DNA of 62,615 nucleotides, counting the filler, from Hausera hauseri (taxonomy: Eukaryota): the NCBI GenBank assembly GCA_046269625.1. It is 12 parts of 12 records of this genome, joined end to end, with 100 filler letters (N's around TTAATTAATTAA, not from the genome) between each part and the next. Parts side by side here need not be neighbours in the genome. Positions count along the whole stretch, not along the records: positions 37,107 to 42,617 come from JBJURY010238739.1; 11 more parts are not named here. One strand, written 5' to 3'. This document shows positions 4,110 to 62,615 of the stretch, one piece after another. Each line of letters begins with the position of its first letter. The first letter of the stretch is position 1. The position numbers and the translations under genes were made by a program. Under the pieces are notes generated by a model that did not search any database, had not been told where the DNA came from, and worked only from the letters and a program-made list of their open reading frames with translations.

Positions 4110-4111
4110 TT

Positions 4112-4660: not shown

Positions 4661-5329
4661 AAATCAGACGTAGAACGCCATGTCGGCTATCACAATCGTA
4701 AACGAAAAGGAAGGCCTATGTTCTTGTACAAGCGGAAATCTACAAAACCCAATATGCGAAGAAATAATTTAGATGATGACGAGCCTAAGGGAGGAGAAGC
4801 ATTTGCAAAAATAAGCAGGCACAAGACGTACTCTATCATTAAAGCACCATTGACTATGCTACCTCCTACCGCTCTAGTCTATAACGACTGTGACAAACGA
4901 TCAATGAATTCATATTAGACGGAAACCTATAAAAGGATGATTAATGTAGAAGATCCGTATGAAGGCACGAAACGCTACGGAATCCTGCGGAAAATGTGTT
5001 ACCGACAGCCCGTGGAATATCCCAAAATGTTGTACTCTCCGAGAGAGCCTTGGAATATAGAAACTAGGTCAACGGTTTGGGACCATCCAAGGTTGAAAAC
5101 CCTCCAAAATATCGAAGTACACACTAACAATTGAGAACCTTTAATGAGTACTCAAGAAGCAGAAAACTTATTCATCGAAAGCAACGAATTATACCGAAAC
5201 GGAGAGTTGAAGCAACTAGCAGAGTACATAGTATCCTCCCCTGAAATTCGAATTAATGGGCATAAGATATCAATGATTAAACGTCCAAAAGTATCATCGA
5301 ATTGTGTTGGAATAATAATAGAAGGATGA

Positions 5330-8300: not shown

Positions 8301-8620
8301 GAACAAAATTTTCCAGAATTAGAGCAGACGCAATGACAAAAGTGTTGGGAAATCGCCAAGACGTTATCTCAAGAAAATCAAAAGTAGTTTAAAAAGCAAT
8401 ATGATAAGAAAGCAAAACCACATGATTTGAAACCAGGAAATTTGGTTTATGTACACTATCCCGTAGCCAGGAAAGGCATCTCATTAAAACTGACTCGTAC
8501 AGGCAGAGGACCGTACGAAATTACCATAGTTACGCCGGCCGGAGTATATATTAACAAGAATGGAAAGGAAGAAGTTGTGTTAGTAAAATGAGTGGTCAAG
8601 ACAGAATACGGTCCAATAAA
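5330..8620 (+). pseudogene. pol: Gypsy pol of element A (protease, dUTPase-like spacer, RT, RNase H, integrase), disrupted
   Basis: ALIDTGS (5378); FCIDYRVLN, LDLQSGYWQ, MPFG, YLDD; RNase H DASK and NYSVAELE; integrase MDIVGP, TDRG, MVERMN; GPY motif near 8510. Many stops and frameshifts, and a deletion at the RT start. Confidence 0.95.
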
Positions 8621-10078: not shown

Positions 10079-10192
10079 CAATTACAGAGCGGGTTATTCT
10101 GTCACTGGATAAAAAATTGGTTTTATTTTAAAAATGATCTTTATTTTAAGAATAATCCGTATTATTTATTTCTCAGAATCGAGAACAGCGGG

Positions 10193-11958: not shown

Positions 11959-12229
11959 AAAATTAACGGTGCCAGTAGANNNNNNNNNNTCAAGACACAA
12001 TATCAGAAATACCTAGCAGCCAACCGAGTTCCGGACTTAGATCACGAGATGGTGGTCGATTGGACATTAGTAGCAGTAAGTTGTGACCCAAGACGAAGCG
12101 CCGTGGACCCAAAACAGAAACGAATTCATGGATACTTATATTGAGGTAAAGAATCGTTAATATTTGAACAAATTGAAATTGCGATCAGTGGACCTGAATG
12201 ACGAAAAATGGAAAAGAGAAGAAAATGAA

Positions 12230-12364
12230 TGCCCAGTCTGTGAGGCAAACTTCCAACAAGGATATGTTATCCTGGATAACAAGGATTGCAGACATAAATA
12301 CCGCCGGGAATGACTAGAAAAGTGGACCCTAGAAAATGGTAAGACCACTTGCCCAGTATGTCGA
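12230..12364 (+). pseudogene. Degenerate RING-H2 zinc finger
   Basis: CPVCEANFQQGYVILDNKDCRHKYRRE*LEKWTLENGKTTCPVCR. Ligands 5 and 6 read CGC and TGA, each one substitution from His and Cys. Not in the ORF track. Confidence 0.75.
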
Positions 12365-13314
12365 GCCGAAGCAGCCGACTTAAAGTACTTCTCAAACGGA
12401 GGATATACGAGAGTAGTACGTATAAAATTTTATCATAGTTACGAAATCGAAATTCGGCACGATCATAATGATACGGATTCCGGAACTAGTTTACGCCGAC
12501 GAATGAATTTATTAAGACCTCGCGAGGCTTGCGGCACATCTTCGGACTAAATGGGCACCTCAGAGAATGCCGTTCAGGAAGAAGATATGTTGTAGTGACG
12601 GACTAGTGGGCGAAATGCTAAACAGGCGACATCTGTAAATATTTTATTTCCTAACAATTAAATTGTAAATACTTATTGGTTTTGAAAATTTCCTGTAGCA
12701 ATTAAATTGTAAATAGTCGGTTTGATGGATTTTGAATGATCATATATGCAATTATAATGCCAATAAAAATAATAGATCAGAAAAAGCGGAAAACAAAACA
12801 AAAATTAATATGTAAAAAGGAAATAGTAGAAAATTTAACGGAAAAATTGGAACTATATAAACAGAGATGAAAATAGTGAAAAAGAGTAGTAATGAGTGGA
12901 AAATAGCTAACGATCGACAGCAAACAATTGGAAACTTCAAGGACAGAGTTGATTGACTTATTTGACGATTTTTATTGCGGAGTGATCGACGTATTGTATC
13001 CAGAATTTTACTGGTAAATGTTTTTTTTATTAAATTGTTGTACGGTCTTAAATTTCTATATAGCTTTGCATTGCCCCATAAGGGTAATTGGACTCTCCTA
13101 AGTTTTTAAAATACACTGTAGCCTTAAATGGTTAAGAGTTGAACTTATAATTCGCACGTCATAGCATTCAGTACAAGCATTATATTTAAAATTTCAATAC
13201 AAGGCACAATCTGTCTACTAGATTACGGTAGACCTTCCCTGTATCAAAAGACTAATTTCAACGTAAATATTGTTAGTATTATAAAATTGCCGGTTCTGGG
13301 CCACCCCCCCTCAT

Positions 13315-13520
13315 TTGCGTAACTTCCGGTTTGAAATTGCGCAACGACCGGGGTAGAATTGCGTCACTTCCGGTAAAAATGGCGTAACCCGGTAGAAATT
13401 GCATCACTTCCGGTAAAAATTGCGTAACATCCGGAGGAAATTACACAATTTTCAGCGGAAATTGTGCAATTTGTGCAGGAATTGCGTCACTTCCGGGGTA
13501 CAAATTGCGTTACTTCCGGC
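13315..13520. repeat. Degenerate tandem repeat, unit about 20-23 bp (AAATTGCGTCACTTCCGGT), about 9 copies
   Basis: Copies include ttgcgtaacttccgg, ttgcgtcacttccgg (twice), ttgcatcacttccgg, ttgcgtaacatccgg and ttgcgttacttccgg. Confidence 0.85.
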
Positions 13521-14368
13521 AGTAGCTGTGTCCTGATGGGGAAAAATAGTGTAAGGCACATAAGTGCGCGGGGATTGTCGGGATAACCGTTCAGGATAGC
13601 CCTGTCNNNNNNNNNNNNNNNNNNNNNNNNNNNNNNNNNNNNNNNNNNNNTTAATTAATTAANNNNNNNNNNNNNNNNNNNNNNNNNNNNNNNNNNNNNN
13701 NNNNNNATTCTTTGTCTTCTGTTTTGTCTTAGTGTAAATTCTTTAGTTGTTACATTTTATTAAGTGACAATGGTATTAACTTTGCAAAATTTAAACAAAA
13801 GTGGGAATAGTGAAACCACGACTGCACCAATCAATATATTGAATTTCAAAATCAATATATTGATTTTCAAAATTCCCCATATAAAATTCCTATGCATTAT
13901 TGATTATCGATCCTGGGGGGGGTTGGTGCAGTGCGCTCACTTTAACCTACTATTACTCGGTTAAGACAATTGATTGAGATATTCAGCAAGAGGTAATAAC
14001 CCTTCGAATCGATTGAACATGAGTGTTATAAATGACCTGAAGAAGTAAGAATTCCTTTGGTAGATAGTCACAGAATTATTAATCTAACCATTAACTTATT
14101 AAACTAGTATGAACACAATAAAATTATTTGACACCTTTTACAAAATAAAGAAGATATAGCGCAGATTACTTCTGTAATCGTACCGCCGTCGAACTCACCT
14201 TCAGATTATCAATATTCATTCGATTTGTATGTTGGTTGTATCAAACACCGAGACATTGCCATATACACAACTAACACTCTTCAAATGTTTTTTCAGCTTT
14301 CGATATTGAATCAAATTTCTTATTACTCAAAACTTGAAGTCAAAATTCCATTTCCTGCCGTTTGTTTA

Positions 14369-19366: not shown

Positions 19367-19466
19367 NNNNNNNNNNNNNNNNNNNNNNNNNNNNNNNNNN
19401 NNNNNNNNNNTTAATTAATTAANNNNNNNNNNNNNNNNNNNNNNNNNNNNNNNNNNNNNNNNNNNN

Positions 19467-20347
19467 AACAGGCATTTGACAGCATTCACAACGTCCATCA
19501 CCCTGGATCAAAAGCCACAGTTTGCCTATTATGCAGTAGAGTTTGTTGGCCTTGCATGCTAAACGACGTAAATCGGTGGACAAAAAAATGTTCACTGTGC
19601 CAACAGTATAAGGTCAACAAGACCATACAACCACCAATCCTACACTACCCTACTGGCTCACGGTATGAAACCATCCACATGGACATAGTAGGACCACTTT
19701 CCGAATGTAACGGATATCAGTACATACTAACCATTCTCGACCGGAAAACAAGATGGCCTGAAGCCATTCCAATCCGCCAAATAACCACGCAAAGCGTTGT
19801 GGCTGTATTGCTAAATACATGGATTTCTCGGTTTGGAGTACCTAAAAACATTATAACAGATCAAAGTGCCCAATTCAAATCAGCCATGTTTAATCAGTTA
19901 ACCAAATCGCTTGGTTCAAATCATATACATATATCGCCCTACAATCCACAGGCGAATGGTTTTATCAATCGATTTCATTGTACACACAAATCATCCTTAC
20001 TAAACCTATGCCACGAAAACAAGAACTGGTTGGATGCACTACCCATTGTGCTAATAGGATGGAGAAACACTCAAAACACTAGCACTGATGCCTCTATGAC
20101 ACAACTATTATTTGGTGCCCACCTCACATTCCCACAAGATCTCGTGAGCAATCAGGAATTAAATTTCATTCCCGCTCTCCACGAAGCTCGGAAGTATTTC
20201 CCGTTAATAGACACGAACCATGCATTCCACAGCAATCACAAAAATCCACTCATGTCCAAGAAACTACAAGATGCGTCCTTTATCTTGCTCAAAAGCCAAC
20301 AAAGGCACAGTTTTGAACCGTACTACACGGACCCTACAATCTCATAG
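19467..20347 (+). mobile_element. Gypsy integrase fragment, CsRn1-like clade
   Basis: HHCC finger H..HHPG...WP.M..DV..W...C..CQ; HMDIVGPL; LTILDRKTRWPEAIP; WISRFGVP..I.TDQ; YNPQANG. The catalytic Glu is lost (FINRFH). Confidence 0.9.
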
Positions 20348-28537: not shown

Positions 28538-30070
28538 GTCACAGATTACTGAAGAATTTCTGGAATTTTTGGAGTTTTACAAAAGATTAGTCAGAATCCC
28601 GATGATAAATTTATTGAATCATTTATATTGCATGTGTTTTATGAGATACAGAATAATATCAAATCATTATTGGATTTTCCCGAAGAGTTGTATGCTTCAG
28701 ATGACCATCAGAAGAATCCGAACAGACGAGTCTCTTTTCGTGAACAATCTGATAACAATGAACTGAGTGTCTCTCGAGATCCATTGTTGCCAATCAAAAG
28801 GAAAATTGTCGTTGAATTAAACAATATATTATCTGATTTCAATCGACGAAACGGTAATTTTATGGTTGATCGAGGCATGAAACCGTTAGTGGAAGAATTG
28901 ATAAAGTTCATAAAACTGTGCAGTGACCTCATCGGTATATCTCGGTAATGCTTCAATAATCCAAATACATCATTAAGTTCAACAATGACAAAGGCCGATT
29001 CTCTAAATCCTGATGCTACCATCGATATTAATCAGGTAGTGCGAATAATTCGTAACTGCATTCACAACTCAAATAATAATAAACAGAGAACTTTGAGTTG
29101 GATTAGAGAAATAGATATCAAGAACACGCGCTTAGATATACCAAAGACATGGTACAGATGTACTACTGTTTGTGAAATATGTTCTAGTCAATGCACTCAC
29201 CACCTTTCCCGTAATGGCAATCACAAAAATGATATACAGTGCGAAAATATTGATAAAAACAAAATTTATTATTGTAAGCAATGTATTGTTCACAATTTGT
29301 CCACGAAACATGTTCCCCACGTATCAACGTCTACGAGCAAATCACAATTTTTTTACAAAACGTTATTTTACACCCTTTCAGTGGCTTCTTAGTTGAATGT
29401 GACAGACAAGGTATTGCATTTGATTCGAATATATTCTGTATATCGGATGAAAATGCGGTTGATGTAGTTGATTTATACAAATGGCCTGGTCAGAATTTCT
29501 TAAAAGATAACGTACATCTAATGAGTCAGATGATCATCGACGTTGTAAAAGTGTGTTAGAACCTGTTAACCATTTACTTGTTCAGTTAGGTGAATATTTA
29601 TTGGATGTAGTCAATCCGGACTACTGGGAATTGACTAATTCAGCTAGTTTATGTAGTTCTTGTAAAAAGATATCTATGAAGTTTATGAATAAGCATCACT
29701 GTCGCATTTCTAAACAAGGTCTTTGCAGCTACTGTATCCAGGGTCAGGATAACAGTCGGAAGCTGTGTTCGGGATGTTTTATTAAAATCCAAACCACGAA
29801 CATTGGTAACGACCTGCCAATTATCACCGGAAAAAATAAAATCATCAACATTTGGTTACACATTCGGATACTTTCGAAAATCGTTGACAACATGGAACGG
29901 ACCAATGAATTGGGAGGTGGATGATATTGTCCATGAATGTTTTATATGCAATGCAGAATTTTCACCCCAATTTAATCCCATTCGTCATTTTCGAGCTTGT
30001 GGGAAACACGTTTGTAATGAATGTAGTCAACGTCTCCAAACATTCAAATGGAGAGAAATAAATGATCCGA
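28538..30070 (+). pseudogene. ZFYVE1: ZFYVE1/DFCP1 (double FYVE) pseudogene, 3' part, frameshifted
   Basis: C...CEIC...C; IYYCKQC; FSGFLVEC; WPGQNFLKDN; first FYVE PDYW...CSSC...KHHCR; second FYVE WEVDD...CFIC...RHFRACGKHVCNECS, truncated before its last Cys pair. Confidence 0.8.
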
Positions 30071-31439
30071 TGTTGAAACTAGCTATTGAAGACCAAATAA
30101 GAAGTTTTGGACAAACTTCAAGTCAACCCCTCACAGAACTACATCCTCCACGAAATTCTGCGTTTCGTGTCAGCCCTCTGATATTTGCTCTAGTCCTATC
30201 AGATTTGTTGATGATATTTAAGTTTGTTAGCAATTCTCCTATAGTTTGGATGTCAGGCAACGTCCATCTTCAATCGCCATTACCTGCCGTACTGACAATA
30301 TCCGGTAACTATGTCTATGGAATTAACAAGTGGAACCATGCGGCAGCTGTAAGTGCCCATGCCTCAGTCCCGCAATCAATATCTGTAATATTACCTTTAG
30401 CTACCTCTCCGAACTCGCAATATTTTTCATCATACGTAACTAGTAATCAGTATCTTACAAATGTGGATTCTCATTACAAAAGGGTCACAATCGTACCATT
30501 AGTAGTGTAATTATCATTGTCTATGGACCCACTTTTGGGACAAACAAATTTTCTGTCAAATCACAATTTTGGAGAAGGACTCGACCTATGTATCCGACCC
30601 CGTAATCATCAACTGGAGAAAGCGCCTACTTCATTCTCAGTTTATCCGTTTCTGGAGTAACGAGATTCAGTCAACGGACTCAAAATTTGCCGCGATTCTT
30701 CACAATATCCTCTCAAAGTCTCCCGGAAATAATTTATTCGATAATAGAAAGAACAAACATTTGAGATGTGTCGACGAGACCGGCGTCGATTTCATTAACA
30801 AGGACGATCCAGGGGGAAAACACTTGAGATATGGCAAAATGCAACAATCAGTATTCGGACGTTAAAACACAGATGGGTGAGATTCTTATTGCCGGTTTAC
30901 GCCCACCAGTGCAACTCTTTTTGCGCTTATGCAGGTCTCTGTGGCTAAAACCATTTTTCATTTTAAAGGTTTTTTAAGCTTAATGTCTTTGAATGCCCTT
31001 TATCCCAATCATCACTCGCCACTGCTACCCCAGCTGCACGCCCGTACCCCTTGTTAACACAGAAGGAAACCGCTCAAGCTCCCCATGCATTTCACCATTC
31101 CATTGGGATCATTTCGCTGCAACTCTCCTTCCTAGTCTTCAGCAATAACCAACACATAAAAACCATTAGAACTCCACTCCACGCCACGGCGCAGCTCCTA
31201 TACATTTCTTTATCCTCCTCACTCAACACTTCCAACTTCTATTTTACACACCAATACATCACTGTATATCCTGTCGACTCACTCCTATTTTTCGTCTGCC
31301 ATGAACGTCCAGTCATCCATCTCATGCTTTATTTTCGCCTTCGGGGTGGATCGGATTCAAACCCATTCTTCTCGGGTGACAAGTCCACAAATACAGGGAA
31401 CGTCTATCGTTTGCCACATTCCCAACAATCACGAGGGTC

Positions 31440-37006: not shown

Positions 37007-37376
37007 NNNNNNNNNNNNNNNNNNNNNNNNNNNNNNNNNNNNNNNNNNNNTTAATTAATTAANNNNNNNNNNNNNNNNNNNNNNNNNNNNNNNNNNNNNN
37101 NNNNNNTACCGGTCGTAGCTAGCTGTTTTCTAGCAAAACATGATGCGCAATGGAAAAAAAATGTTTAAAGAAAGAAATGAAAAGAATTCGCTATATAGCA
37201 ATATAAATGACAAGAACGATGATAATGATGATTTCGAAATTAAGCCAAAAAGCAGTAAATATATAGAGATGGAGAAATCTCTCATTAAAACCACGAAAGC
37301 GGAAATACATGTCGAGGTTGATAACAGACTTACCACAATTAAACGATGAATATCATGGACAAGCTACAACGGACAA

Positions 37377-40300
37377 ATGATAACGAATCCATCAGCTCCT
37401 CAATATTCAAAGCGTGAGGAAATGTACCCCATGTATCAAGTCCTACAAATAAAACGAAATTATGATGAAAATCTCATACCAAGCCACCATGAATCAAACT
37501 GTAAAACGACGGACAAGAATGAGTCACAATCGCCTGTGAAACCAGAAATAAATATAGAAGTAAACGTATACCCATTAACGGCTTTGCTGGATACTGGATC
37601 TACAACCACTATCATGAGAGATGACCAGTTACCTAAAGAACTGAGAAGAAAGTTAAGAAAACCAAACACAACGCTAGTTAACGTGGGAGCATTTGGTATG
37701 GAAGAAGAAATAAAAACGGTACTAGACGCAAAAGTTAAGATTGGCAACCAAATACTAAACCACACAATTAGAGTAGCCAAGAATTTGACCAACGATATAT
37801 TAATCGGATGTGACATATTAAATCAGCTAGAGAATGCTTATATTGATTTAAAGACAGGTCAATTAAAAACCTTTAATAAGGAACAGCATGAAGGGTCAGT
37901 TTCTCTGGTACAGGACGTGATAATTCCACCACAATCCGAAATAATAGTACCTGGCCAAATAGAAAGCAAATTACTCGCCACATATATACACTTTGAACCG
38001 TTTTTAAGAACAATGGAGAAGTACGATATTATTATTGCTCCGCATGTAGATAAAGTGAGAAATGGAAAGATTCACTTACGAATTTGCAACGCTGGAAATA
38101 ATGAAAAATGACTAAAGGGAAATACAAGGTTGGGAAAAGTAACAGAGATCGAAGAAATACAAAAAGAAAAAATTAATTCAGTTATATCAGACGTAGATGA
38201 GATAGAAGAGTTGATGAAGAAGAAATTGAAGAAGGAAGCAAAGGAAGGCAGGAGAAATAAAGAAATGACAAGAATTAATTGGGAAGAAAAGTTGGGGGAC
38301 TGCGAAATATTAACCAAGGATGAGAGAAGAATGTTAATTCAATTATTAAAAAAGAACAACGAAAGATTTGCCCAAAATGATTATGATCTAGGTACGATGA
38401 AGGTAATACAACATTCCATCAAATTAAAAGAAGGACAGGAGAAACCAATAAAGAAACGACCATATCGCCTAGCTTATTATAAAAAGCAGGAAGCTCAGAA
38501 AATCATAGAGGAAATGAGAAAAAACAAGATAATACGACCAAGTTGCTCACCATGGACAGCGCCTGTAGTGATGGTTAAAAAGAAAGACGGAGCCATGAGA
38601 TTCTGCATAGATTATAGAGCTTTAAATGAAATAACCGAAACCGACACTTATCCGCTACCTAGAATCGACGAAATACTAGACAAATTACACGGATCAACGA
38701 TATTTACCACTATTGATTTACAAAAAGGGTATTGGCAAGTAGAAGTAAAGGAGGAAGATAAACCTAAGACAGCCTTTTCAATAGGCGAAGGACTATGGGA
38801 ATTTAATAGAATGCCGTTCGGATTAAAGAATGGACCACCAACGTTTCAAAGAGGAACTGAATTACTACTGCTGGACGCACCACATGCCATGGTCTATATT
38901 GATGATGTTATAATAGCATCATCAGACTTCCAACAGCATTTAAAGGACCTGCAAGACCTCTTTGATAGATGCGAAATAATGAGCCTAAAAATAAACCCAA
39001 AGAAGTGCTAATTCGCCCGGGCAGAGGTCGATTTCCTCGGACACCGAGTCGATAGGCACGACGTGAAACCGCAAGATAGGCTTTTAGGGAAGATAAAAGA
39101 TTTTCCCAAACCAACTACAGTGAATGAACTACGCCGATTCCTGGGCTTAGCGAATTATTATCGAAGATTTATAAAAGATTTTAGCAAAATAGCCAAACCC
39201 TTATATGAATTACTACGCGAAGATTTAGAAAAAGTAGTATGGACAAGTGACTGCCAGAGAACTTTCGAGGAATTAAAAGAAAGATGGCTAAATACTCCAA
39301 TCTTAATCTACACAGACATGACAAAGCCGTTTATATATTGGCAACGGACGCAAGTGACTATGGAGTAGGAGCAGTCCTTTCCCAAAAAGGCGAAGATGGG
39401 AAAGAACACCCAGTAGCTTATGCTTCTAGAAAGTTAAATAAACATCAAAGGAATTATGCAGTTATTGAAAAGGAACTACTAGCCGTAATATTTGCACTAG
39501 AAGTGTTCTCACCATATATCAGTGAGAATAAGCCATTATCGATATACACAGATCACCGACCCCTACAATGGCTGAAGCAACACGAAAACCCAAATAGTCG
39601 ATTATTACGATGGGCTCTCAAATTACAGCCCTATACGTTAAATTTTCAATATAAACCAGGAACACGGAATGCAAATGCAGACTATTTATCAAGAATGCTT
39701 GAAACACCGAAGATAAAAGAAGTGGTCGCTGCAGTATGGAGCATGGATGGATCCGTAGAGAAAATAAAACAGAATCAACAAGAAGACACAGAGATAAAGG
39801 CAATTAGAAATTATATACAAAACAAAATATTACCATCAAATCGAGAATTAGCTAGACATTTGGCCCGATTCAGTGAGGCCTACGAAGAAAAGGATGGATT
39901 TTTATATTATATCCACCAAAATGGACCAACCTTGGTAATACCAGAGAAGAACAGAACAGTGTTATTGACACAATACCATGACGGATTATTAGGAGGTCAC
40001 CAATCAGCACGAAAAACGACAGCCAAATTAAAAAGGAAGTATTTTTGGCCCACCTTAGTGAAGGACGTACAAGAATGGTGTGATAGCTGTAAACTCTGCG
40101 CTACGCGTAGGAACACCGGATCAAAATTCAAAGCTCCCCTCAAAGTATGGGATAATCCGCCAGCCCCGTTTGAGTTCACAGCTATGGATGTAACAGGACC
40201 TTTACCACTAACCCGAAACGGAAATAGATATATTCTAGTTTTCATAGATTACTTCACTCGATGGGTAGTAGCACTGCCTATGGCAGATATGAAAGCGGAC

Positions 40301-41089
40301 ACAATAGCCGAAAAATTTGTAGAAAATATAGTATTTAATTACGGAGCCCCAAGAATTCTATTAACAGATCAAGCGTCTAACCTTACTGGTAATGTAATGC
40401 AGGCGATATACGATATTATGCGAATTTTGAAACTACGTTCAACACCAGGACACCCGAAAAACAACGGAATGCTTGAAAAATACATTGGTGATTTAAAAAG
40501 TAAATTGCAAACGGTTGTTAGCTCACGACAGGACGATTGGGATGAATATATCAACGCCTGTGTATTCGTAAATCGAACATCTGTACATGAAGCCACCAAG
40601 GAAACGCCGTTTTATTTAATGTATCTAAGAGATACCCGACTACCTATTGATTTGGATTTCAACGCAAAGCCCACATCTCATTTGATGGAGTTGGAAGAAT
40701 ACAAATTGTTAATGCAGGAACGTTTACAATTAGCATATAAAATAGTGAAGGATAATCAAAAAGACTATAAAGTCACCTATAAAAAGTATTATGACGAAAA
40801 AACGAAACAACCTAAGATCAAGGTCGGAGATAAGATGATGTTGCATACGCCACTAAACAAGAAAGGAAAGACATCCAAATTGGATAGACCGTATAAAGGC
40901 CCATACGAAGTAGAAAAAGTGGACCTACCAAATCTCTGTCTAAAGAAGAATAACACCACATTCAAAGTACATGTAAATAGATGTAAACCAGCAGCCAAAG
41001 AAAGCAAGCTTAGACAAGATGAACAGGATATAGTAAGAAGTATCGAGGATAAATCAATTGTAAATCATAAATCCTACGAACCAAAGAGA
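37377..41089 (+). pseudogene. pol: Gypsy pol of element B
   Basis: LLDTGS; FCIDYRALN, IDLQKGYWQ, MPFGLKN, YIDD; TDASDYGVGAVL, EKELLA, TDHRPL; HHCC finger; D-D-E in AMDVTG, LTDQ, GMLE; GPYEV. Confidence 0.96.
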
Positions 41090-42499
41090 CATCTCTTACT
41101 AGTAATACTAATGTTACTGCCACAAGTGTTGAGTCAACTAACTAATCAGGAAATCGAACGAGCTAAAATACGACATGCAATGGCCATAAACGAAGATTTG
41201 ATGCTGAAAAGTTTGAAGTATCACATAACCTATTCTATGAAAGGCCAGAAATGTGCCATTTGGTACATTACAAGACAAATGCCCAGCAAATATATGATAG
41301 GAATACAAATGATCCCGTGGAACGACTATAAAAGGGATCCTAATGATCGACAGTACGACTGTACACTTTATCCAGCAACAAATGAAACCCAATGTTTGTT
41401 AGAAAATTCAGGGATTAACACGGTATACCTTACACTCATAAAAAGAAAAGGAGACTATTATCATAGTCTATATACCAAATTTAGCAAATACATTCAAATC
41501 CCCAGTCGATTGCAAATGAACGAAACTCTATTGGACGAAATCATACTCAAGCAATTAAGGATAAGATCGATGGGATTCAAAAGTGGACGTAGTTGCATTG
41601 AAGTTGTAAGTATAATAGAACTCGAATACATCCGATGGATAACAATATATATAAAAGAATCAGGAGGCAAACAAAAACTATTAAAGTGCGAAATAACATA
41701 TGAGCAACAGCAAGTATGTTGCAATGTAACGAGAGGTAAAATATACGATACAAAATATGTTTTATCTCGAAAGGAACATGGAAAATTTAAAAATAGAATG
41801 CAGATAAAAGGACCAACCATGTATATTAGATATAAAAACAAAATAGAGTATAATGAGAAGATTGAAGTTGTCACAAAACCATCTGAGGTTACGGGGCCGG
41901 CTGTGCATTTCCCGTTGAGTAATGACAAGAGAGACATGACTATTTTGATCAAACCATATGCATCATACTACCGACAAAAACGCTCCATATGGGAAAATGT
42001 TACAATTACAACTACCCCGACAGCACTAATACTGGCAGTAAAACCAGATCTTGATTTCATAAAAGTAAAATTTACATGTAAGTTGCGAGATAAGGTAGTA
42101 GCAAAGGGAGACATAACCCCTGACGATTTAATAGCGCCATGTGCGGCCTTGGCACCCAATACTCAATATACGGTTATTCTCCAGTTAGTCGATAATAACC
42201 ATAAAGTAATATTAACGAAAATCTTAACGGCTATCACACGAAAGGAAATAAGAACTCCAAAGTTACACGACCAAGTCATCAACAAATATACCACCACTCA
42301 AAGGCCGCCACGTGCCACATATAAATACTCTCGAATAGAATTGATAATAGTAGGTGTTTGTGCCCCCATAGTATTACTATTAATTACCTTAGTTTTAATA
42401 AAAGTAACTCTTTATGTACGACGACGTCGCAGACAGACATGGACAAGAATAGACCTGCGACGTATACCGAACACCTTGAAAACCGATAATCCAAGCTGA
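41090..42499 (+). CDS. Type I membrane protein fused in frame to the integrase C-terminus (about 470 aa)
   Basis: Signal-like HLLLVILMLLPQVLSQ; Cys-patterned repeats; furin-type RQKR/S (41972); FN3-like CAALAPNTQYTVIL; T/P-rich stalk; TM IELIIVGVCAPIVLLLITLVLIKVTLYV followed by RRRRR; several NxT sequons. Confidence 0.85.
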   Translation, partial: HLLLVILMLLPQVLSQLTNQEIERAKIRHAMAINEDLMLKSLKYHITYSMKGQKCAIWYITRQMPSKYMIGIQMIPWNDYKRDPNDRQYDCTLYPATNETQCLLENSGINTVYLTLIKRKGDYYHSLYTKFSKYIQIPSRLQMNETLLDEIILKQLRIRSMGFKSGRSCIEVVSIIELEYIRWITIYIKESGGKQKLLKCEITYEQQQVCCNVTRGKIYDTKYVLSRKEHGKFKNRMQIKGPTMYIRYKNKIEYNEKIEVVTKPSEVTGPAVHFPLSNDKRDMTILIKPYASYYRQKRSIWENVTITTTPTALILAVKPDLDFIKVKFTCKLRDKVVAKGDITPDDLIAPCAALAPNTQYTVILQLVDNNHKVILTKILTAITRKEIRTPKLHDQVINKYTTTQRPPRATYKYSRIELIIVGVCAPIVLLLITLVLIKVTLYVRRRRRQTWTRIDLRRIPNTLKTDNPS

Positions 42500-42717
42500 C
42501 GGTGGATGATAAGGATTGTGATCGACACAATCCACGCAAGAGAGATAGCTAAATGTCATGTAGCTACCCTTTTAGCAATCAAAAATAAAATTACAATGAT
42601 TACCGAAAATAATTATTNNNNNNNNNNNNNNNNNNNNNNNNNNNNNNNNNNNNNNNNNNNNTTAATTAATTAANNNNNNNNNNNNNNNNNNNNNNNNNNN
42701 NNNNNNNNNNNNNNNNN

Positions 42718-46337: not shown

Positions 46338-46830
46338 ATGATAGTCAATATTAACTACTGCGGATATGTTACCGAATGTATTAATGCACTGCCGTTTAAT
46401 CAATGGAAGCCGAGGCAAAATGTTCACAAATGTCCACCGGATATTACATGCATCATATTTCCATTGGGAAAGTGTCGCATTATGGGTTGTCGCAAACCAA
46501 TCACAAATGACAGACATCTACCATTCGGAATTATCGTTGACCAAATTCAATAAATAACGGTAACGATTCAGTTAGATTCCTCAAAACCAACACCATCAAT
46601 TAATCTGCACAAATTAGCAATGGCTACCGAATTTATTTATGATCCCGAACTGTTTCCTGCACTGCGACTAACACTATTCCGCCCTGTTTGTGTCAATATG
46701 TTCAGCAGTGGAAAAATTGTCGTATTGGGGATTCGGTCAATCAACTACGAGACGGCTATTAATCAAGTTAATCACCATATAAGTGTTTTACTGAATCAAA
46801 GTAATATACTCTGGCCAATTGACTATAAAT
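46338..46830 (+). pseudogene. TATA-binding-protein-like gene inside the Polinton
   Basis: Two TBP-type halves in one frame: VNINY...TCIIFPLGKCRIMG and INLHKL...YDPELFPAL....VNMFSSGKIVVLG. A single TAA at 46551. Confidence 0.8.
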
Positions 46831-47421
46831 ATTATTCTCATGTTCGTTCGGACATTAATACGATGAAAAGCGACGATAAAACGATTCTGCTCAAGGATGA
46901 CGAAGGTACAGATTTGTCATGGGTGTTTGGTGACAATAATGGCAATATTAACTGTCTTGAACCGAAACCTGTCCAACAATTAGTAAAACCGGTATTAAAA
47001 CGGCAATGGAGAATTATTAGTGGTAAACGCATGTCAGATGAAGATAGAGCGATAGTACTCAATGGTGATGGTAATGATCACGATAGTTCCAATTTATCAC
47101 GAGTGCTTGGTGGCAACAATTCTAATGTCAACTATTTGGAACCGAAAATAGAACCTGTCCAATAAATAGAAAAGGCTAAATTAAAACGTCAAGCGCGAAT
47201 GATTAATGGAATATAAAAACGAAAATTAACGTCCACGCATCAAATAACGACATTTTTACCGACGCAACGTTTCTGAAAGTATGAAATGCATTATCCTACA
47301 CGCACGTCCAGATATCGTTGAATGATCCGGTGTTGTTGACCACACCCAAGTACAGTTATCGTGTAAAGCAGCTATCGCGTGAAAATGTTGCGAACTTGGT
47401 GATGCTTTAAGTCAATTAAAC

Positions 47422-50591: not shown

Positions 50592-52556
50592 ATGGTACAG
50601 AGCATCAGTAATTTCAGATTTCCTTTGGCCGCCTGGATCATCATCATCCATGAGGTTCTGGAACGGTTCTCATTCTATGGCATGAAAGGGATACTATCGT
50701 TGTACTTAAATATATATTTGGGGTTTTCTGAGGACACTTCAACTATTTTCTATCATTTATTTACGGCAGTGTCTTACTTGAGTCCGATACTCGGTGCTGT
50801 GGTTGCAGATAATTATTTAGGTCGATACAAAACAATACTCTGGATGGGAATTATTTATCTAATTGGTCATTTGTTGATGTCTTTAACGGCAATTGTGAAC
50901 AACATCCCCGGACCTTTAATTGGAATGTTCATTTTAGCACTCGGTGCTGGATTGATCAAATCATCGGTGGGGGCATTTGGTGGGGACCAAATCCCGGCGA
51001 ATAATGATGACATGATTGCCAAATATTTCTCTTTGTTCTATACAGCAATCAATATCGGTGCATTTGTTGCCCAGTTCGTAACGCCCATTTTACGACGAGA
51101 TATCTCCTGTGTAGATGGTCAGTGTTACCCATTAGCATTCGGTGTACCCGCAATGGCATTTCTCCTGACGTATTTGTTGTTTGTTGCCGGTTCAAAAACA
51201 TACAACATTGTTCCATTATCAAAGAGCGCTATTTCGAAATTTGTCGAGTGTACAATTTATGGCATCTGTCAGTTTGTTAGAAAACGAAAGGAGAAAAACT
51301 TCAACTCGATATTGGACTATGCCAATGATCGGTTTGATGTCGAATTCATACAACAATGCAAAAAGGCAATTCGAATCATTATTATTTATACCCCTATCCC
51401 AGTTTTCTGGGCTCTATATGATCAACAAGGATCCAGATGGACCCTTCAGGCAAAGTATATGAACGGTAAAATTGGTCAATCATATTACATGAAACCAGAA
51501 CAAATCCAGTCATTTAATTCACTTTTTATCATCCTGCTGATCCCAGTTTTTGATATGATCATCTATCCTTTGCTGGGTCACATGAATATTTTACTGAAGC
51601 CAACTAGTAGAATAATTTCATCTTATTTTGTAGCTGCTGCGGCATTCATACTGGCTGCCATTATTCAGATATTTCTCAATCAAGGTCAACAAGTCTATTT
51701 CCCATTGAACTCGAAAATCGTCTTAATGAATACTATTCAAAACTGCAGTCTTTATGGAAATATTTCCGGCGTTGAATTTTCAATTCCTTATTCAAACTAT
51801 AGGGTCGTAGATACTCCAGCAGGAAACCTCAGTCTCATTGCAAATTGTGGTGGAACCCTTGCACTAGAAAAATCCATAACGTTAAAAAAGAATGCAATAA
51901 AAATGGGAATAATCGATTTAGAACATGGAAAAATGAGACTAACATCCGATGATGTTATTGTTTACCCAGCAGATGGATTTGGTTATGTTAGAAAATTGCC
52001 AATAAATACGGGAAATATTTCGGTAAGAGAAATGAATGAAGATAAAGTAATCGACGATAAATATCGACAAATCAGAGTTGGACAGTACAAAATAATTTGC
52101 CAAGGAAACAACAGTCATTCTACAGAATGCGGTGTTGTTGATATTTCACCAGGTTTAACTGGGACTCTTGTCCAAATTCAAACGAATGAAGTTCGATTTA
52201 TTCCCGAACATTCTCCCACATTGATTCATATGTTATGGCAGCTACCGCAATATGTTATCATAACGTGCGCGGAAATTGTGTGCTCAATTACGACACTTTC
52301 CTTTGCTTACTGTGAGGGTCCAGATAAGCTGAGGTCGCTTATGCAATCCGTTTACCTTTTGACGATATTCGGTGGGAATTTGATTGTTGTATTTGCTGCT
52401 ACTGTTGGCCGACTGGTGAGTCAGACTATTGAGTTTTTCTTGTTTGCAACTGCTGCCGCGATTGCCGGTTTGGTCAATTGGATCTTAATTAAATACGTTT
52501 GGGAATCTCAGAGGACCATATCAGTTACGAATGTGGTTGATTATCAGATGAATTGA
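50592..52556 (+). CDS. Proton-coupled oligopeptide transporter, animal SLC15A1/2 (PepT) type; intact and intronless
   Basis: EVLERFSFYGM; SPILGAVVADNYLGRYKTI; AFGGDQ; FY.AINIG; FWALYDQQGSRWTLQA; large extracellular domain before HMLWQLPQY. 654 aa. Confidence 0.95.
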   Translation: MVQSISNFRFPLAAWIIIIHEVLERFSFYGMKGILSLYLNIYLGFSEDTSTIFYHLFTAVSYLSPILGAVVADNYLGRYKTILWMGIIYLIGHLLMSLTAIVNNIPGPLIGMFILALGAGLIKSSVGAFGGDQIPANNDDMIAKYFSLFYTAINIGAFVAQFVTPILRRDISCVDGQCYPLAFGVPAMAFLLTYLLFVAGSKTYNIVPLSKSAISKFVECTIYGICQFVRKRKEKNFNSILDYANDRFDVEFIQQCKKAIRIIIIYTPIPVFWALYDQQGSRWTLQAKYMNGKIGQSYYMKPEQIQSFNSLFIILLIPVFDMIIYPLLGHMNILLKPTSRIISSYFVAAAAFILAAIIQIFLNQGQQVYFPLNSKIVLMNTIQNCSLYGNISGVEFSIPYSNYRVVDTPAGNLSLIANCGGTLALEKSITLKKNAIKMGIIDLEHGKMRLTSDDVIVYPADGFGYVRKLPINTGNISVREMNEDKVIDDKYRQIRVGQYKIICQGNNSHSTECGVVDISPGLTGTLVQIQTNEVRFIPEHSPTLIHMLWQLPQYVIITCAEIVCSITTLSFAYCEGPDKLRSLMQSVYLLTIFGGNLIVVFAATVGRLVSQTIEFFLFATAAAIAGLVNWILIKYVWESQRTISVTNVVDYQMN

Positions 52557-54159: not shown

Positions 54160-57100
54160 TTATTTCAGCCACCAATGTCCATACGTCCAACTCTTATTTC
54201 ACCGCACCCACTTTCGCTTGTCATCATTACATGACAAAGCGACTTTCGCACTAGTTATTGTGTACAGCTGGTGCTCAATTGATCGAATGATAGTTTGAGA
54301 CAAAACAACCACTGATTGTCCTCCTTCTGCTGCTGCTGTTGCTTCATATATACGGTGATAATCACCGTGACCGATTTCCGTCTGATGCAGCTAGACTCCG
54401 TTTGCTCGCATCCACAGTCCTGACACTGAACCCGACCTTCACTTTCATCCTTGAAGCAGCGGATTTTGTTGGTTATCGCGCTCCTGTACGACGGATGATC
54501 CGGTGGATAGTGGGACATGTCCAGTAATCCATCTGACAGAACTTGCTGCAGTAGCTGTTCGCGATTGACTTTTTTCAGCCACAGAAAAAAACTATCTGTG
54601 TTACTGGCAAATATACTAATATCACAGCCGTCAAACATTTGCCGGTAATGTGCCAAATTGCGATACTGCAGCTCATACATCCGCAACTTGCTCAGGTCAA
54701 ATACCACTTGTCCAATGTAACTTGGCTGGTCCAGAACGACTTCTTCTCTGTTTAACAGTACCGCAACCAATCCATAGGAAATGTGCATTGACCGCCGAAA
54801 CTGTGCCTTGCTGGTATACGTAACCAGCCGCTTTTCACTGTTGCATAGATGTACAATGAACCGCTTTTTCAGATTCTTCACTGTTTTTCCATACAGGGAA
54901 TTGTTTTTCAGCTTGTAATAGTCCTTTTCGAACTTTGAACAAGCTGCGGCTCGTTTCTCCGAATTTACACCTGTCTACGCCTTGTATATGGAAGTCTGAG
55001 AAAATTGGATTGCACGGTGCATCTATGCAACGCGAATACCGAGCTGCATGTAGAACTGTAGCAGACGCTAAGGGACAACGTAATTCAGCTTCGGTTCATG
55101 CGTCATGAGAAGTTTCTTTACTTTTGAGCGTGGCGGACATTGGTTAAATGGTGCGACCGGCAAATCGTCCGAAATGTTATGCAGCTCATCTAGTATCTCG
55201 AGATCGACCTCCATCAGGTGTCCGACTGAGCCTGCCATGTCTGCTCGTGGTAGGTTGACCATTATATCGTCCAAATCTTGTCTGTTTACTATCCATTCGA
55301 ATGAACCGTACGGCAAGGGTTGCGAAAGCGCCCAGCCGTACAGATTATTAATATCAGTATAGAGCAGTGATGTGGTATCCGTAGCCCTGATCTGATGCTT
55401 GTTGACAAAGGTCATGGCACCTCGAATAATAACATGAAACAGCCGGTACATTTCCGGATCTTGCAGCAACTCAATGTCTCGATCCAGTGACATTAGAGCT
55501 GACGCCCAACCCATTACCGTTATGGAATAAAAATTGAGTGGCTCCAGCCCATCTTCAGGCAACGCTTTAGCTCGAAATGTCTGAAACACATCGGCTAATA
55601 AGTGCACGCCCAGTTTAAGATACTGAAGCATATACTCCAACATGTTTCTGCAGCCCAGTTCTGTCCAGAACCTCTGTGATTTCCGGTATTCATTCCCTGC
55701 GATACCTGTCTATCACGGCGGTAATTCCTCTGCCGTTTGGAGTCTCTCATATGATGTTGTAAAGTAATACGGGAATATGCTTTTGCTACGCGCAATATGT
55801 GTGGGAAATTGCGTTAATGTTATCGGCACATCCTGCAAACCATTTAAGAACTTTGCTAGAGACTTACTAAAAATTGCAATGAGTCGAGGAAGCGTACCTT
55901 GAACCGGTTTATGCGTGCTGACAGGGACAGGCATTTCTCCATTTTTGTTGGGATTACTGACAGTTCCCAGTGGGGAAATCCATTATTGGCCCATTTCAGT
56001 ATATGGTGACAATCATAACCTGGAACATTATGAAAAATCACCGGTAAGAATGGCCTCACACGCCTTGCCAAATTGCATGAATTACATGCTGCTCCGAGAT
56101 ATCGACTAGTAAAATGATCGTATCCTGTACGTGCCGTTCCAGTGCGTCAAACGGAAATATTTTGTGGCACAGATAACATTCATCTGTGACTACAAACGTC
56201 AGGCGTTCATCTTTATCTGTCCACATCAAGAATTTATTGCTATTTCTACTGTACCCGGGTGCGATTTCAGTTTCCACTATGGTTTGCAACTGCTGCAGGA
56301 AATCACGTACACAGTTCCAGCCGCCAAAGGCCTAATACTGCAGTTGACCGACCGCTTTTATTGGGACAACCAACATACAGACGGCGATTGTAACATGTTT
56401 TTGATCATACACGTTGTGCAGTGGTAGAATTGTCTCAATATCGGCATATACCATATATGCCGGACTGTTCGTTTTCGACCAGTCACTGAATCGGAGCTCC
56501 TTTTTGAGTGGCATTACGTACATGATTGTTTCCGTTGAATTCTGCTTGCACAGCGCCACATGTTTCTCCAATGTTGTCTTTGACCTGAATCCATGCAGAC
56601 ATACAGGACACCATTTGAATCGTATTCTATTTTTGATGATCTGGTCATGTTCCATGTTCAACAGTCTATTCAGATTTGTCACTTCCACGTAATGAAATTT
56701 TTCGGCCTGCTCCAATAGCAACAAATTTATCGAGCGTCCATTCGGGTTCCGACTGAGATAAATTATGTCGACATGGAGGTTCGTATAAATTTCTTCGTCT
56801 TACGGTATTTCAATTATTGTGTTGTACCGGAAAACGTTGATTGACAGTGTCGTATTACNNNNNNNNNNACTTCGCTGTACTTCAGTACAGCCAAAATATT
56901 GTACAGAAAACAGTATTCGTCGTCAGTATTTTGTATATTCACTACCGCCAGAGACTGCTTTAGAGATGCAGGTGTCTGTATGAATGACAGTCCAGACAAA
57001 TATACCACGTCACTCGACTTTGTTATGACAAATCCGAATGCTACAATTCGTATAATTCGCCATCCACTAACCTTTTCGGTATAGTTGGCGATTTTCTCAT

Positions 57101-57883: not shown

Positions 57884-58705
57884 GTATGCGCAAGACTCAA
57901 TACATTGGACAATTAGTACACCTCTGAATGGAAAACAAAATAAAATAAATGTTTTACATTAAGATATAAATACTGTAACTTGAAATATGACAACATATTT
58001 TTCGGTCTTGAGAAAAAAGCCTCCTTACTCCCTTATAAACAATTATTCTAAACGCTACAACAAGAACAACAACAACAACTAAAAGTCGCATGGAACAGTA
58101 CATTGAAAGCGAGTTTAAGAAATTGACCGATAATATTTTGAGTGGATATGCCTTTGATGTTCAGTTTTTATGTGAGCTCGCAAAAACCAGAATAATTAGT
58201 AGACGGGAATATATTGAATTAATTGTCAGATCTCTATTCATACAACGTATCAAAGATGAAATGAGACGAAAACGGCAANNNNNNNNNNNNNNNNNNNNNN
58301 NNNNNNNNNNNNNNNNNNNNNNTTAATTAATTAANNNNNNNNNNNNNNNNNNNNNNNNNNNNNNNNNNNNNNNNNNNNCACAACTGCCAATCAAAACGTT
58401 GGGGCTATGATAACATAGACAGCAGGGGAGAAGTCGAAAAGCTTGTTTATGTAATTGTCGTGTTCACCATTTTATAAGGTAGCGAAGTAACACCTGTCAG
58501 GAGGTTTGAAATGTGTATTTTGTCTGTATCAGAAATCCATCTAACAGTGTCATGAGACAAAAGGCCGGCTGATTGTGATTCTTGTCGATACATTGGTCCT
58601 CCTTCAGTTGTTAAAATTGTTAATTGGAGTGAGGATGAAAAAAATCAAATGTAAAATACAAGGTGGGAAAGAGTTGTTAACAGAAAATTATATTTTGGAT
58701 GTGAA

Positions 58706-60585
58706 TTGAATTCAGTCGGAGAATATGACATTACAGAGATGTTTAACGGAACAAATTCATTTAATTCTGATGACATAAAAATACTTATCCCATTTGAATT
58801 GTTTCCATTTAGATGTGCAGTTGGGATACAAAGTGAAGAATATTCATGGAAAATCATTGGTTATTTCAATGAAAGTTCCATTGCAAGTTCTATAGATGAG
58901 ACTGAAATTTGTAGTGAATATTGTAAGAATGTTGGCTTATTAAAAATTGTCGAGTTCGGCAATGAGATTGTTTTAAAAGAAGTGAAAAAAGTATATGGTG
59001 AGTGTAAATGGATTGGTAAAATAAATAGTCGGATTACAGTCGGGATAGAATTCAATATCGATGTCAAAAACAAACGAAAACTAATTCTAAATGTAATAGA
59101 CATTGCACATTATTACAAAGCACTCAGTTGCGAATCAATTGTCAGTTTGGATCGATTCCTACCAGAAATGTTGGCAAAAACTGATATTATTGAAGAAATG
59201 TTGGCCGGTTCGTCACAAGTTGTGGAAGTGAGTGACATTCAAAATCTTGGTCCAATAGTATCGAATTTGATGTACAGTAATAATCAGTTGGTCCTTAGCA
59301 AGGTTGAACGATCACTGCAAAATGCATTGTGTGTTAACCGATGTTTGGTAAAAGAACTAACATTAATTACTGGTTGTAGATCACCAGAGACATTATTGAC
59401 ACCATTTGTATAATCATATATTACAAGTCGGCGGAACGTTGCAATATTGTATTTGGGCCTATACGGAAGCACTGGGGGTGATTTCGTATACGTTGGCAGA
59501 GAATATTGAATTGAATTTGATACAGACAGTGACGAAATTGTGTAAACGTTATATCGACGGAGAGAAAAATGCAGGAACTAATATTAAGCATGGTTGTGTG
59601 TCGAATATAACGGAAGATGATGTGATACAACCGTTGTTGGCGAACCACAGTTCGATAATGTTGACAACGGGAACGGTGTATGTATTGAGGCCGATTTATA
59701 CCGTTTTACAAATAATTATGACAAAGACTTATGTTCAAAGGTTGGCGGGTGTCCTTATAATTCTCCGGTACCTGTTCAATTCTGAAAAGATTTGTGAATT
59801 AAACCGTTGGATTTTCGGAACCATATACGTCAGTGCGTTGAAAAAATCATGCGAATTGCCAAAGAAATTCGGTCCGTTTGAGATATACGAAGATCGTCCG
59901 GTCAACAAAGATAATTCACATTCGAATACGTGGAATGTAAAGTGCTACGTCTATCTGGATTGGGCTGGTTTGAGGATTGAATTTGCCAAATACGGTGTAC
60001 GAAGTAGTTTACTTGGAACACAAATGCCAACTACTAACACTCCAAATTTTCGTAAACAACGAATGTTTCGGACTGCTCATGAAATATATTTGTCTACGCA
60101 GAGTGAACAGCGGAGAATTCGTTGCCATCAATCAGTACATGATGGGTGATTTAATAAAATCGAGAATCTGGTGCGTCGACGTGAGTTATGTCGTTATGGT
60201 TAAAAAAGGATCCATCCAGAAAATTATCTGTACCTCAAACGACATTAAAAACTTATACGAAATTATACGAGAGATTAGACGGTCTTCCATAATAAAAATG
60301 GCTGCCGATAAATCATCGATCATTGACCAGAATCAAAATCTGAATTTACATGTCAGTAATCCGGGTCGTCAAAAACTGACATCATTGTATTTCTATAGAT
60401 GGAAACCGAGACTCGAAACGAGACTGTGCTACTGGTTATCTATAACACAAACAACACCAAATATTATTCAACCTCTGTGGAATTTGGTGGATGTGATAAC
60501 AAAATTGGGAATGTTAACGGCTATCTTCAGAACCACAATTATTGATTGCAACGGGGTTCTGAATCCCCTTAAAAATTCGATGTAA
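58706..60585 (+). pseudogene. Unidentified frameshifted coding region (three overlapping ORFs over 200 aa)
   Basis: Consecutive same-strand ORFs of 235, 247 and 202 aa in AT-rich DNA; no motif recognised. Confidence 0.4.
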
Positions 60586-61439: not shown

Positions 61440-62615
61440 ACTTGACTAGACGAATACGATTCATTAGCAACAGCCATGCATTGGGACGAGACAAAGATAA
61501 TATCTCTTCTACCAGTGCATGTAAATAACGACCTGAGAATGGCAATAACTCGCCTATCTACACAAATGGATGAAACTGGGACACAACACCGAGAAAGGAT
61601 TCTACAAAATCAGCAGGTAAACATACAAGAAAACGGATATTTGAAATTCCAAAACTGTAAACAGAAACCAAATGAAGAGATATTGACATACATTAATAGA
61701 TTTAAAGCGGCAATGAATAGATATTTTGTCTTGAGTGCACACTCATTTGGTGCCATGATCATGAAACAATTTGTACATGGACTTTTATTGCCCTTACAAG
61801 AAGGAGTTAAATTCCATAGAGCCAACAATTTTAACGAGCTGATAGAATATACCCGACGAATGGAAACCCGCATAGATGAAACATCTTTATGTACTAATCA
61901 AACACAGATCGCAGCAGTAGTCACGACACCATTATTAGTAAGGCTAGACGTACCAAATCGTTGAAACTCACCTTGGAGAGACTCTTCGAGAAGCCAAAGC
62001 CCTAATCGACAAGGCAATAACACACCGCAGAGAAGCAGTACTCCAGAAAGAGGGAACTATAATCAATCATTTAAAGATCTTAACAATAAGCAATGGGGCA
62101 CCTCATGTCCAAGAAATAGAGGATATTATAATAATCGACAAAAGAATGATACAAGATACGATAGATCACAAGATTATTCAAGATATAGAATTGATAATAG
62201 AAATCGATTCCCTAGTGGAGAAAGGTACAGTAATGATCGAAATCCCAGTCGTTATGAGAATAGAAACAATCAAATAAATCCATATTGTAAATCAGACGAT
62301 ATCCGGACGCAGTATCCAATTGATTGATCGGAAGGATCAAGACCCATCTATTCCAATGATAAGCGAAGCGAAAGTCACGAGTAGTTTAGAAGAAATGATA
62401 GCTGAGAACGGTATAGTAATTTAAATAGGAACAATAGCAAAGAAAGAGATAACCGACGAGGCGATAGCAGAGATAGGCATACTCCTGGAAACGATAATAA
62501 AAATAGGTATAACGATTCGAGATCTGGAAACTGTGACAGAAGAAGTGGCTATACTCCACCTCGACAAGAATTAGACAGATATAATAAAAATCCTAGTCCA
62601 TATTCTCCAAGATAC
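61440..62615 (+). mobile_element. gag: Gypsy gag relic with a long R/S/N/D-rich tail
   Basis: LDEYDSLATAMHWDE; MHR-like KQKPNEEILTYINRF; FVHGL; then SRSQSPNR-type low-complexity sequence with stops. Confidence 0.8.

Follow-up and report, generated by a model that had tools for sequence, protein, structure and literature searches.

A conserved second membrane protein behind the integrase of Burro-like Ty3/gypsy retroelements, represented by two decayed copies in DNA of Hausera hauseri

The tail that follows the integrase in one Ty3/gypsy-type element of Hausera hauseri (element B) and recurs in a divergent second copy (element A) is a real feature, a conserved second membrane protein of Burro-like retroelements. 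Judged from its sequence, the tail would, with slightly better than even chances, be a second surface glycoprotein at the end of the Ty3/gypsy polyprotein that serves attachment or cell-contact-targeted spread, while a separate gB-type envelope protein (env) does the fusing.

The window, i.e., the whole analysed stretch of 62,615 nucleotides, consists of 12 distinct contigs with N44-TTAATTAATTAA-N44 spacers between them. Elements A and B lie on two different contigs (4110-13606 and 37107-42617, respectively), and the pol regions of both were of the Ty3/gypsy type according to Pfam. Neither copy is intact: A contains numerous stops and frame changes, and B has two stops and a frame change upstream of the frame 39251-42499. 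An LTR pair was not detected in the seven regions scanned, the contigs probably being shorter than the elements, and no tRNA gene was found in the window.

The protease and reverse transcriptase of element B (37350-39335, plus strand; Pfam RVP 5.6e-11, RVT_1 1.9e-29) are broken by stops at 38109-38111 and 39009-39011 and by a frame change near 39330. The gag and env regions of B are out of view, because its contig begins only at 37107; the 5' end of the contig gave no significant match to the env tails of relatives. The open frame at 39251-42499 encodes 1082 amino acids and contains no stop from RNase H through the integrase to the membrane tail, in agreement with the in-frame run described in an earlier note on this DNA. 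RNase H and integrase occupy 39251-40987 on the plus strand (RT_RNaseH 1e-37, Integrase_H2C2 7e-19, rve 3e-11), with both the zinc finger and the core of the integrase present and a GPY module at the end (KGPYEVEKV, 40895-40921; VHVNRCK, 40967-40987). An internal signal-peptide-like stretch (41087-41134, plus strand; hydropathy peak 2.6, hydrophobic part 41093-41134) begins 38 residues past the integrase, and a by-eye call from the −3/−1 rule places the cleavage after VLS. The following ectodomain of approximately 400 residues contains nine cysteines and four N-glycosylation sequons. It starts with two Cys-patterned, beta-rich domains (41135-41971), which are common to A in the A-B alignment. 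These are followed, on the same strand, by RQKR (41972-41983), a possible furin site, by a membrane-proximal fibronectin type III (FN3) domain (41984-42250), whose span includes CAALAPNTQYTV at 42140-42175, and by a stalk containing Thr and Pro (42251-42340), Ser, Thr, and Pro making up 23% of the last 70 ectodomain residues. The protein continues into a transmembrane helix (42341-42400; 19-residue hydropathy 3.15) and a cytoplasmic tail (42401-42499), which carries RRRRR at 42419-42433 and has DNPS as its C-terminus.

Element A is cut by the start of its contig within a gB-type (chuvirus-like) env, of which the C-terminal part remains (4112-4657, plus strand; Pfam PF24664, E 2.3e-19), located upstream of the protease and in the same frame. 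This part matched the env of relatives in tblastn (E 5e-17 to 5e-22). The pol region (PR, RT, RH, and IN; 5330-8600, plus strand) contains many stops and frame changes. The tail (8621-10078, plus strand) comprises RYNLRQR (8621-8641), a signal-like hydrophobic stretch (8684-8719), two Cys-patterned domains, an FN3-family domain (9554-9832), a stalk, and a transmembrane helix (9929-9976). RYNLRQR, the hydrophobic stretch, LLDEII, the Cys pattern, CFLLKPQSDYIV (9734-9769), and the transmembrane helix are all held by frame +2, in which the tail has four stops (8720, 8924, 9332, and 9398) and ends at the present stop with DKIT. Because the GPY module lies in frame +3 and the tail, with its four stops, in frame +2, the fusion in A is deduced and not directly visible. 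Downstream of the tail, a broken frame (10310-11296, plus strand), which had no Pfam match of its own, is kin to the DEDDh-type exonuclease frames of the clade described below (tblastn E 2e-5 to L001 and 8e-5 to L008). It is followed by a RING finger with one stop (12200-12460, plus strand; Pfam zf-RING_2, E 1.5e-7) and, in the 3' non-coding part, by short tandem repeats with 32-nt units (13357-13534). Weak Pfam matches of A to CHIPS (0.018) and Enterotoxin_b (0.0076) were taken as chance.

For comparison with B, the tail of A was aligned with X in place of the four stops. The BLOSUM45 local score of 124 was not reached in any of 2000 shuffles (maximum 106), and the ectodomain alone gave a score of 99, again with no shuffle as high (0/2000). 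One shuffle in 2000 was as high when residues were shuffled locally in stretches of 10, likewise one in 2000 with BLOSUM62, and 14 in 2000 for the ectodomain under local shuffles. The identity between A and B is approximately 25% in the tail, 46% in the reverse transcriptase, and 34% in the integrase. The similarity of the tails is therefore weak but real, and the homology proposed earlier, for which a significance check had been suggested, lies above chance.

Features of other kinds were observed elsewhere in the window. Overlapping frames at 58655-60585 contain chaperonin (Cpn60/TCP-1) and ribonucleotide-reductase pieces, possibly the result of host-gene capture, and a weak gag-like frame follows at 61446-61964. 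An unbroken frame of 654 codons encodes a PTR2/POT peptide transporter (50592-52556, E 5e-80), and a DNA polymerase B piece (54255-55709, minus strand; E 1e-4) together with a weak GIY-YIG match is perhaps Polinton-like. Other contigs carry an unrelated gypsy integrase (19415-20347), a FYVE finger (29689-30510), a TBP piece (46554-47165), and an SMC-hinge/coiled-coil piece (1850-2401).

Relatives of the tail were obtained through Pol only. With the tail alone as query, no match was found among 4092 and 7988 candidates or in 1.84 billion representatives, so that the homologue search proposed in the earlier note yielded retroelement relatives via Pol and nothing for the tail by itself. Scans of viral contigs found no relative. 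In the Pol search, the best 8 of 120 listed matches were set apart (428-550 bits, next 401), and in all eight the integrase is followed by a signal-like stretch and an ectodomain; a transmembrane-like stretch was found in none of the other 112 listed Pol matches with a tail >90 aa. A scan with two integrase motifs returned 44 stretches and 11 confirmed loci, all with the same continuation, which reaches a transmembrane helix in 10 loci and is cut by the contig end in one. The 19 relatives considered here are the eight top Pol matches and these 11 loci, picked by integrase motifs independently of the tail. All 19 continue in frame past the integrase to a signal-like stretch (18 by the hydropathy cut, P0009 by eye), and the transmembrane helix is reached in 17, the other two being cut by the record end. 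One clade member, P0002, is labelled as a protein of a Turicibacter MAG and is probably eukaryotic DNA in a bacterial bin.

In an unrooted integrase tree of 69 rows, the 19 tail-bearing rows formed one side of a branch (98/95). The tree included 50 of the 112 control Pol matches, their choice guided by similarity to B; L004, L011, and P0011 were too short to be used. The placement of A is unsure because of its long branch. The tree supports a tail-integrase fusion that would be ancestral in the clade: the fusion is present in 19 of 19 relatives and RYNLRQR stands in the tail frame of A, whereas the GPY module of A in another frame leaves this part of the earlier proposal indirect. That the tail is an artefact, either an open frame arisen by chance or an element joined to a host receptor exon as a chimera, might be suspected from the lack of homologues of the tail alone in protein searches and from the decay of both window copies. 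Such an artefact is extremely improbable, as the same architecture recurs in 19 independent records and contigs of two public runs cover 30 of 30 bins of B, tail included, mostly with 85-99% likeness.

The membrane-proximal domain of B is, according to structural modelling, a fibronectin type III fold. A repeat profile seeded by 19 repeats from the relatives and free of window sequence gave 23.8 bits for the last domain of A and 14.0 bits for that of B, the null maximum being 8.4 over 667,000 residues; the A/B pair matched this profile with a probability of 94% (E 1.3e-7). The AF2 model of the B domain, calculated from a 21-row alignment, had a pLDDT of 82.7 and seven strands. Foldseek against the PDB returned 33 matches at E <= 1e-3, and the rows listed were all FN3, among them tenascin (TM 0.63/0.67, E 2.4e-4). 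The VIA match to fibronectin had a Z of 10.2 (rmsd 3.4, 97 aligned), and the profile of the 21-row alignment matched fibronectin by sequence as well (E 3.6e-4). The pattern L-x-P-x-T-x-Y, the tyrosine-corner motif of FN3, appears as LAPNTQY in B and as LKPQSDY in A.

The two N-terminal domains did not match the repeat profile significantly. Their language-model neighbours were FN3 at 0.86-0.89 (<0.9), which serves as a lead only, and the first 280 ectodomain residues had a pLDDT <50 in a single-sequence model. A single-sequence model of the whole B ectodomain was discarded (pLDDT 38; VIA Z 5.5, last domain only). The FN3-like ectodomain expected in the earlier note, with AlphaFold and Foldseek as the check, therefore holds for the membrane-proximal domain (pLDDT 82.7, Z 10.2), whereas it is not supported for the first two domains, where the profile matches were not significant. 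A kinship to cytokine receptors in the strict sense was not borne out: WSxWS, the class I cytokine receptor motif, was absent from all 19 ectodomains of relatives. The best single Pfam match among 21 repeats was a receptor-phosphatase FN3 (Dep-1; E 4e-4, 1/21).

The tail as a new kind of fusogen, i.e., as the env itself, would fit its location in the usual env position, the RQKR of B, and the N-terminal 280 residues that were poorly modelled (pLDDT <50). This reading is very improbable. Pfam gave no match for the B tail, the last domain is FN3, and the viral fold search returned named matches mostly of the FN3 type with no fusogen among the matches listed, in line with the earlier view that the tail is not a known fusogen. 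The domain after RQKR lacks a fusion-peptide-like hydrophobic peak, and RQKR, which had been counted among the features of the protein, is not conserved, as it is absent from A and R-x-K/R-R occurs in only 2 of 19 ectodomains of relatives. Nor is a fusogen role likely for the tail given that a gB-type env stands ahead of the protease in each of the four records long enough on the upstream side to show it, A among them (E 1e-91 in P0127, 1e-83 in L009, 5e-94 in L007, and 2e-19 in A). Since a gB-type env precedes pol, the clade is already equipped with a fusogen, and the tail would therefore be a second glycoprotein.

The order of the complete polyproteins was read from P0127 (3735 aa) and L009 (3703 aa), which are natural single frames. 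They start with a Gag, which has two CCHC knuckles in each of them at the head of the giant ORF, followed by an insert, a signal, the gB-type env, and a transmembrane helix, and continue with two protease-like domains, RT, RH, IN, a second signal, two repeats, a stalk, a transmembrane helix, and a tail. An extra signal-FN3-TM cassette is located upstream of the protease in L007 (4796-5065, between env and pol) and in P0008 (residues 60-149); it scored 53.8 bits against the repeat profile, though not a seed. Two or three aspartyl-protease-like domains per polyprotein were observed in L007, L009, L011, P0006, and P0127. Many of these domains keep D-T/S-G/A, and they might dimerise within one chain. 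An extra protease-like domain directly after the integrase was found in five relatives (L001, L005, L006, L011, and P0004) and is lacking in B; in L005 and L006, an ankyrin block (E 1e-10) accompanies this domain in the part between integrase and signal, with a dN/dS of 0.14.

Downstream frames of one family were present in all 10 loci with downstream sequence (L001-L010), and five of them match DEDDh-type exonucleases in Pfam. Each locus has one or two such frames, each with a common uncharacterised N-terminal part. Other cargo occurs in some members only, such as a RING in L003 (E 5e-7) and ankyrin in L005 (E 1e-10). Weak ubiquitin-like matches were observed in the Gag-env interval of L009 (residues 848-903, E 0.018) and in a downstream frame of L005 (10906-11517, E 0.041), and the 3' non-coding part of L010 contains a 64-nt tandem array (5849-6680).

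The ectodomain varies among relatives in length (98-460 aa) and in type. FN3-family repeats were assigned firmly in 12 of 19 relatives and by eye in three, and were absent from four; RGD was found in 1 of 19 ectodomains. In L001 (3172-4776) and P0003, the FN3 repeats are replaced by a short Cys-rich ectodomain, and the tails carry PPSY and E-x-V; these two are the nearest integrase relatives of B. L010 and L011 have still other kinds of ectodomain. The dN/dS of the FN3 part was 0.26 both in the pair L003/L004 and in the pair L005/L006, the latter with a dS near saturation, compared with 0.00 and 0.03 for the integrase. Among L007, L009, and P0127, the identity was 85-88% in the reverse transcriptase, 68-73% in the integrase, 49-58% in env, and 23-27% in the FN3 part. 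A Cys pair and the L-x-P-x-T-x-Y pattern are kept in the FN3 part. The FN3 part is thus under purifying selection, yet diverging much faster than env.

The rapid divergence under purifying selection and the swappable ectodomains would also suit a host-modulating receptor mimic that acts on the producer cell outside transfer, as a decoy, an immune dampener, or a superinfection block. Such a role might further be suggested by the single Dep-1 match among the 21 repeats and by the ankyrin, RING, and ubiquitin-like cargo nearby, as reviewed for Burro in the accessible part of PMC6431247. We nevertheless regard the receptor mimic as rather unlikely: WSxWS is missing from all ectodomains of relatives, the cytoplasmic tails are free of enzyme domains, and the tail is translated as one chain with the structural proteins in all 19 relatives, unlike other cargo, which is variable in position and often encoded in a frame of its own.

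The cytoplasmic tails of relatives comprise 23 to 131 residues, and a class I PDZ-binding motif (S/T-x-V/L) was found at the C-terminus in 14 of 17 relatives, with E-x-V in two more. The background was 3 of 112 control Pol proteins, some of which may be truncated by the end of their contig, and the internal rate was 3.6%. The relatives are not independent; the count by lineage, A and B included, was 9/13. P0005 and P0127 lack the class I motif, and so do A and B at their present stops (DKIT and DNPS, respectively). Because A and B are broken and without the motif, we propose the PDZ step for the family as a whole and not for these two copies. According to the accessible text of PMC4810129, a class I PDZ ligand is S/T-x-hydrophobic at a free C-terminus, and the class I PDZ motif of HTLV-1 Env binds DLG1 at virological synapses. 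HTLV-1 Env thus offers, in the parts of PMC4810129 and PMC3395148 available to us, a retroviral surface glycoprotein that ends in S/T-x-V/L and meets DLG1 at cell contacts, and the tails of most relatives end alike. In HTLV-1, however, the motif is on the fusogen itself, whereas here it is on the second, FN3-type protein and the gB tail runs into the protease.

The constancy of the signal, the transmembrane helix, and the last residues, set beside an ectodomain of variable length and type, could also indicate that the tail chiefly serves to anchor and address at the membrane: signal, helix, and PDZ motif would position Pol and assembly, with the ectodomain as an exchangeable spacer. This is improbable, since the FN3 part is held at a dN/dS of 0.26 with its Cys pair and L-x-P-x-T-x-Y retained, the extra cassette of L007 and P0008 has no free C-terminus, and the tail would lose its hold on Pol once the signal is cleaved.

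Attachment or contact-targeted transfer remains the best fit, because the ectodomain is fast-changing, selected, swappable, displayed on a PDZ-anchored stalk, and made together with gB. The swapped ectodomain types, however, make a poor fit with one conserved receptor. The intact relatives can be read as Gag-Env(gB)-PR-RT-RH-IN-signal-FN3 repeats-stalk-TM. Very probably, two internal signals would thread this polyprotein such that gB and the FN3 ectodomain reach the ER lumen, Gag and Pol stay cytosolic, and the integrase keeps the hydrophobic signal until trimming by a protease; the order of threading was derived from the succession of hydrophobic segments. The first internal signal would bring gB into the ER, and the transmembrane helix of gB would bring the chain back to the cytosolic side for Pol. 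The FN3 ectodomain would then be directed into the ER by the second signal, and only a short tail would remain cytosolic behind the last transmembrane helix. Both ectodomains would be freed by signal peptidase, whose release of the tail from the integrase we consider a reasonable inference. A hydrophobic stub would stay on the integrase, as it does on flavivirus capsid proteins, and the adjoining protease-like domain of five relatives, absent from B, could trim it. On balance, the ectodomain would then rather bind a host surface molecule while the C-terminal motif docks on PDZ scaffolds of cell junctions, which would concentrate assembly and transfer at cell contacts.

Among described systems, the planarian Burro/GYPSM1 elements come close. 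In the accessible part of PMC6431247, they share one giant ORF, a Gag with CCHC knuckles, accessory ORFs, and an env in frame between gag and pol that is akin to mononegavirus glycoproteins, as well as ankyrin and RING cargo, which only some members of the clade carry. Neither a second membrane protein nor an FN3 domain, a PDZ motif, or an exonuclease frame is named in that part of the account. The Burro polyprotein has 4873-5140 aa there, compared with approximately 3700 aa in the two complete ones here. The BIR, BCL2, and MATH domains of Burro were not listed by Pfam in P0127 and L009, the review having used the more sensitive HHpred; nor were Smc and dUTPase-like domains listed here, and a ubiquitin-like match reached E 0.018 in L009. 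Burro/GYPSM1 is further characterised by a size >30 kb, a planarian host, and a Pol that clusters with Burro1; the likeness described here is one of layout, and the clade is filed as Burro-like, not as Burro.

The GAG-ENV-POL HSV/gB-type errantiviruses (Chary and Hayashi, PMC13524379; Smed_errantivirus_1-4) likewise place a gB-type env before pol, a comparison that rests on env fragments and not on Pol C-termini. In the 230-row env sheet of that paper, as far as available, VYQES (three rows) and ELREF (two rows) occur in Schmidtea rows only. The same motifs were found in L007, L009, or P0127, which points to flatworms as probable hosts of the clade. The accessible main text of the paper mentions no fibronectin, accessory, or exonuclease component. 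It states the entry route of gB-only errantiviruses as unknown and the GAG-ENV-POL elements as not one clade. For the nematode gag-env-pol endogenous retroviruses (Sacco et al. 2022, via PMC13524379), which like the elements described here place env before pol in a metavirus, the same portion does not mention a post-integrase membrane protein. The bdelloid rotifer LTR elements with ORF3 (PMC5408684) are similar in their DEDD-type exonuclease frames downstream of pol and small extra frames bearing transmembrane segments; their extra frames are, however, separate ORFs, and the available text mentions neither fibronectin nor a signal peptide. In the literature searched, we found no description of a post-integrase FN3 or second membrane protein; Jurka 2007 and Fig. 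2A of PMC6431247 could annotate the tail.

Four to six passages through the ER membrane are predicted for the polyprotein of these retroelements, and the finding suggests that membrane proteins behind integrases have possibly been missed where pipelines trim Pol at the integrase. To our knowledge, LTR retroelements and retroviruses generally carry one env, which both binds and fuses. Herpes gB requires partner glycoproteins, which the gB-type errantiviruses lack, and the second surface protein is a concrete candidate for entry. As a tentative and rather doubtful extension, the elements might be two-glycoprotein endogenous viruses, in which an FN3 adhesion receptor of host type, once captured and then freely swapped and duplicated, partners gB in attachment or triggering, as gD and gH/gL do in herpesviruses, and anchors a transfer synapse via PDZ scaffolds. 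If true, this would be an entry system that has not been described for any LTR retroelement.
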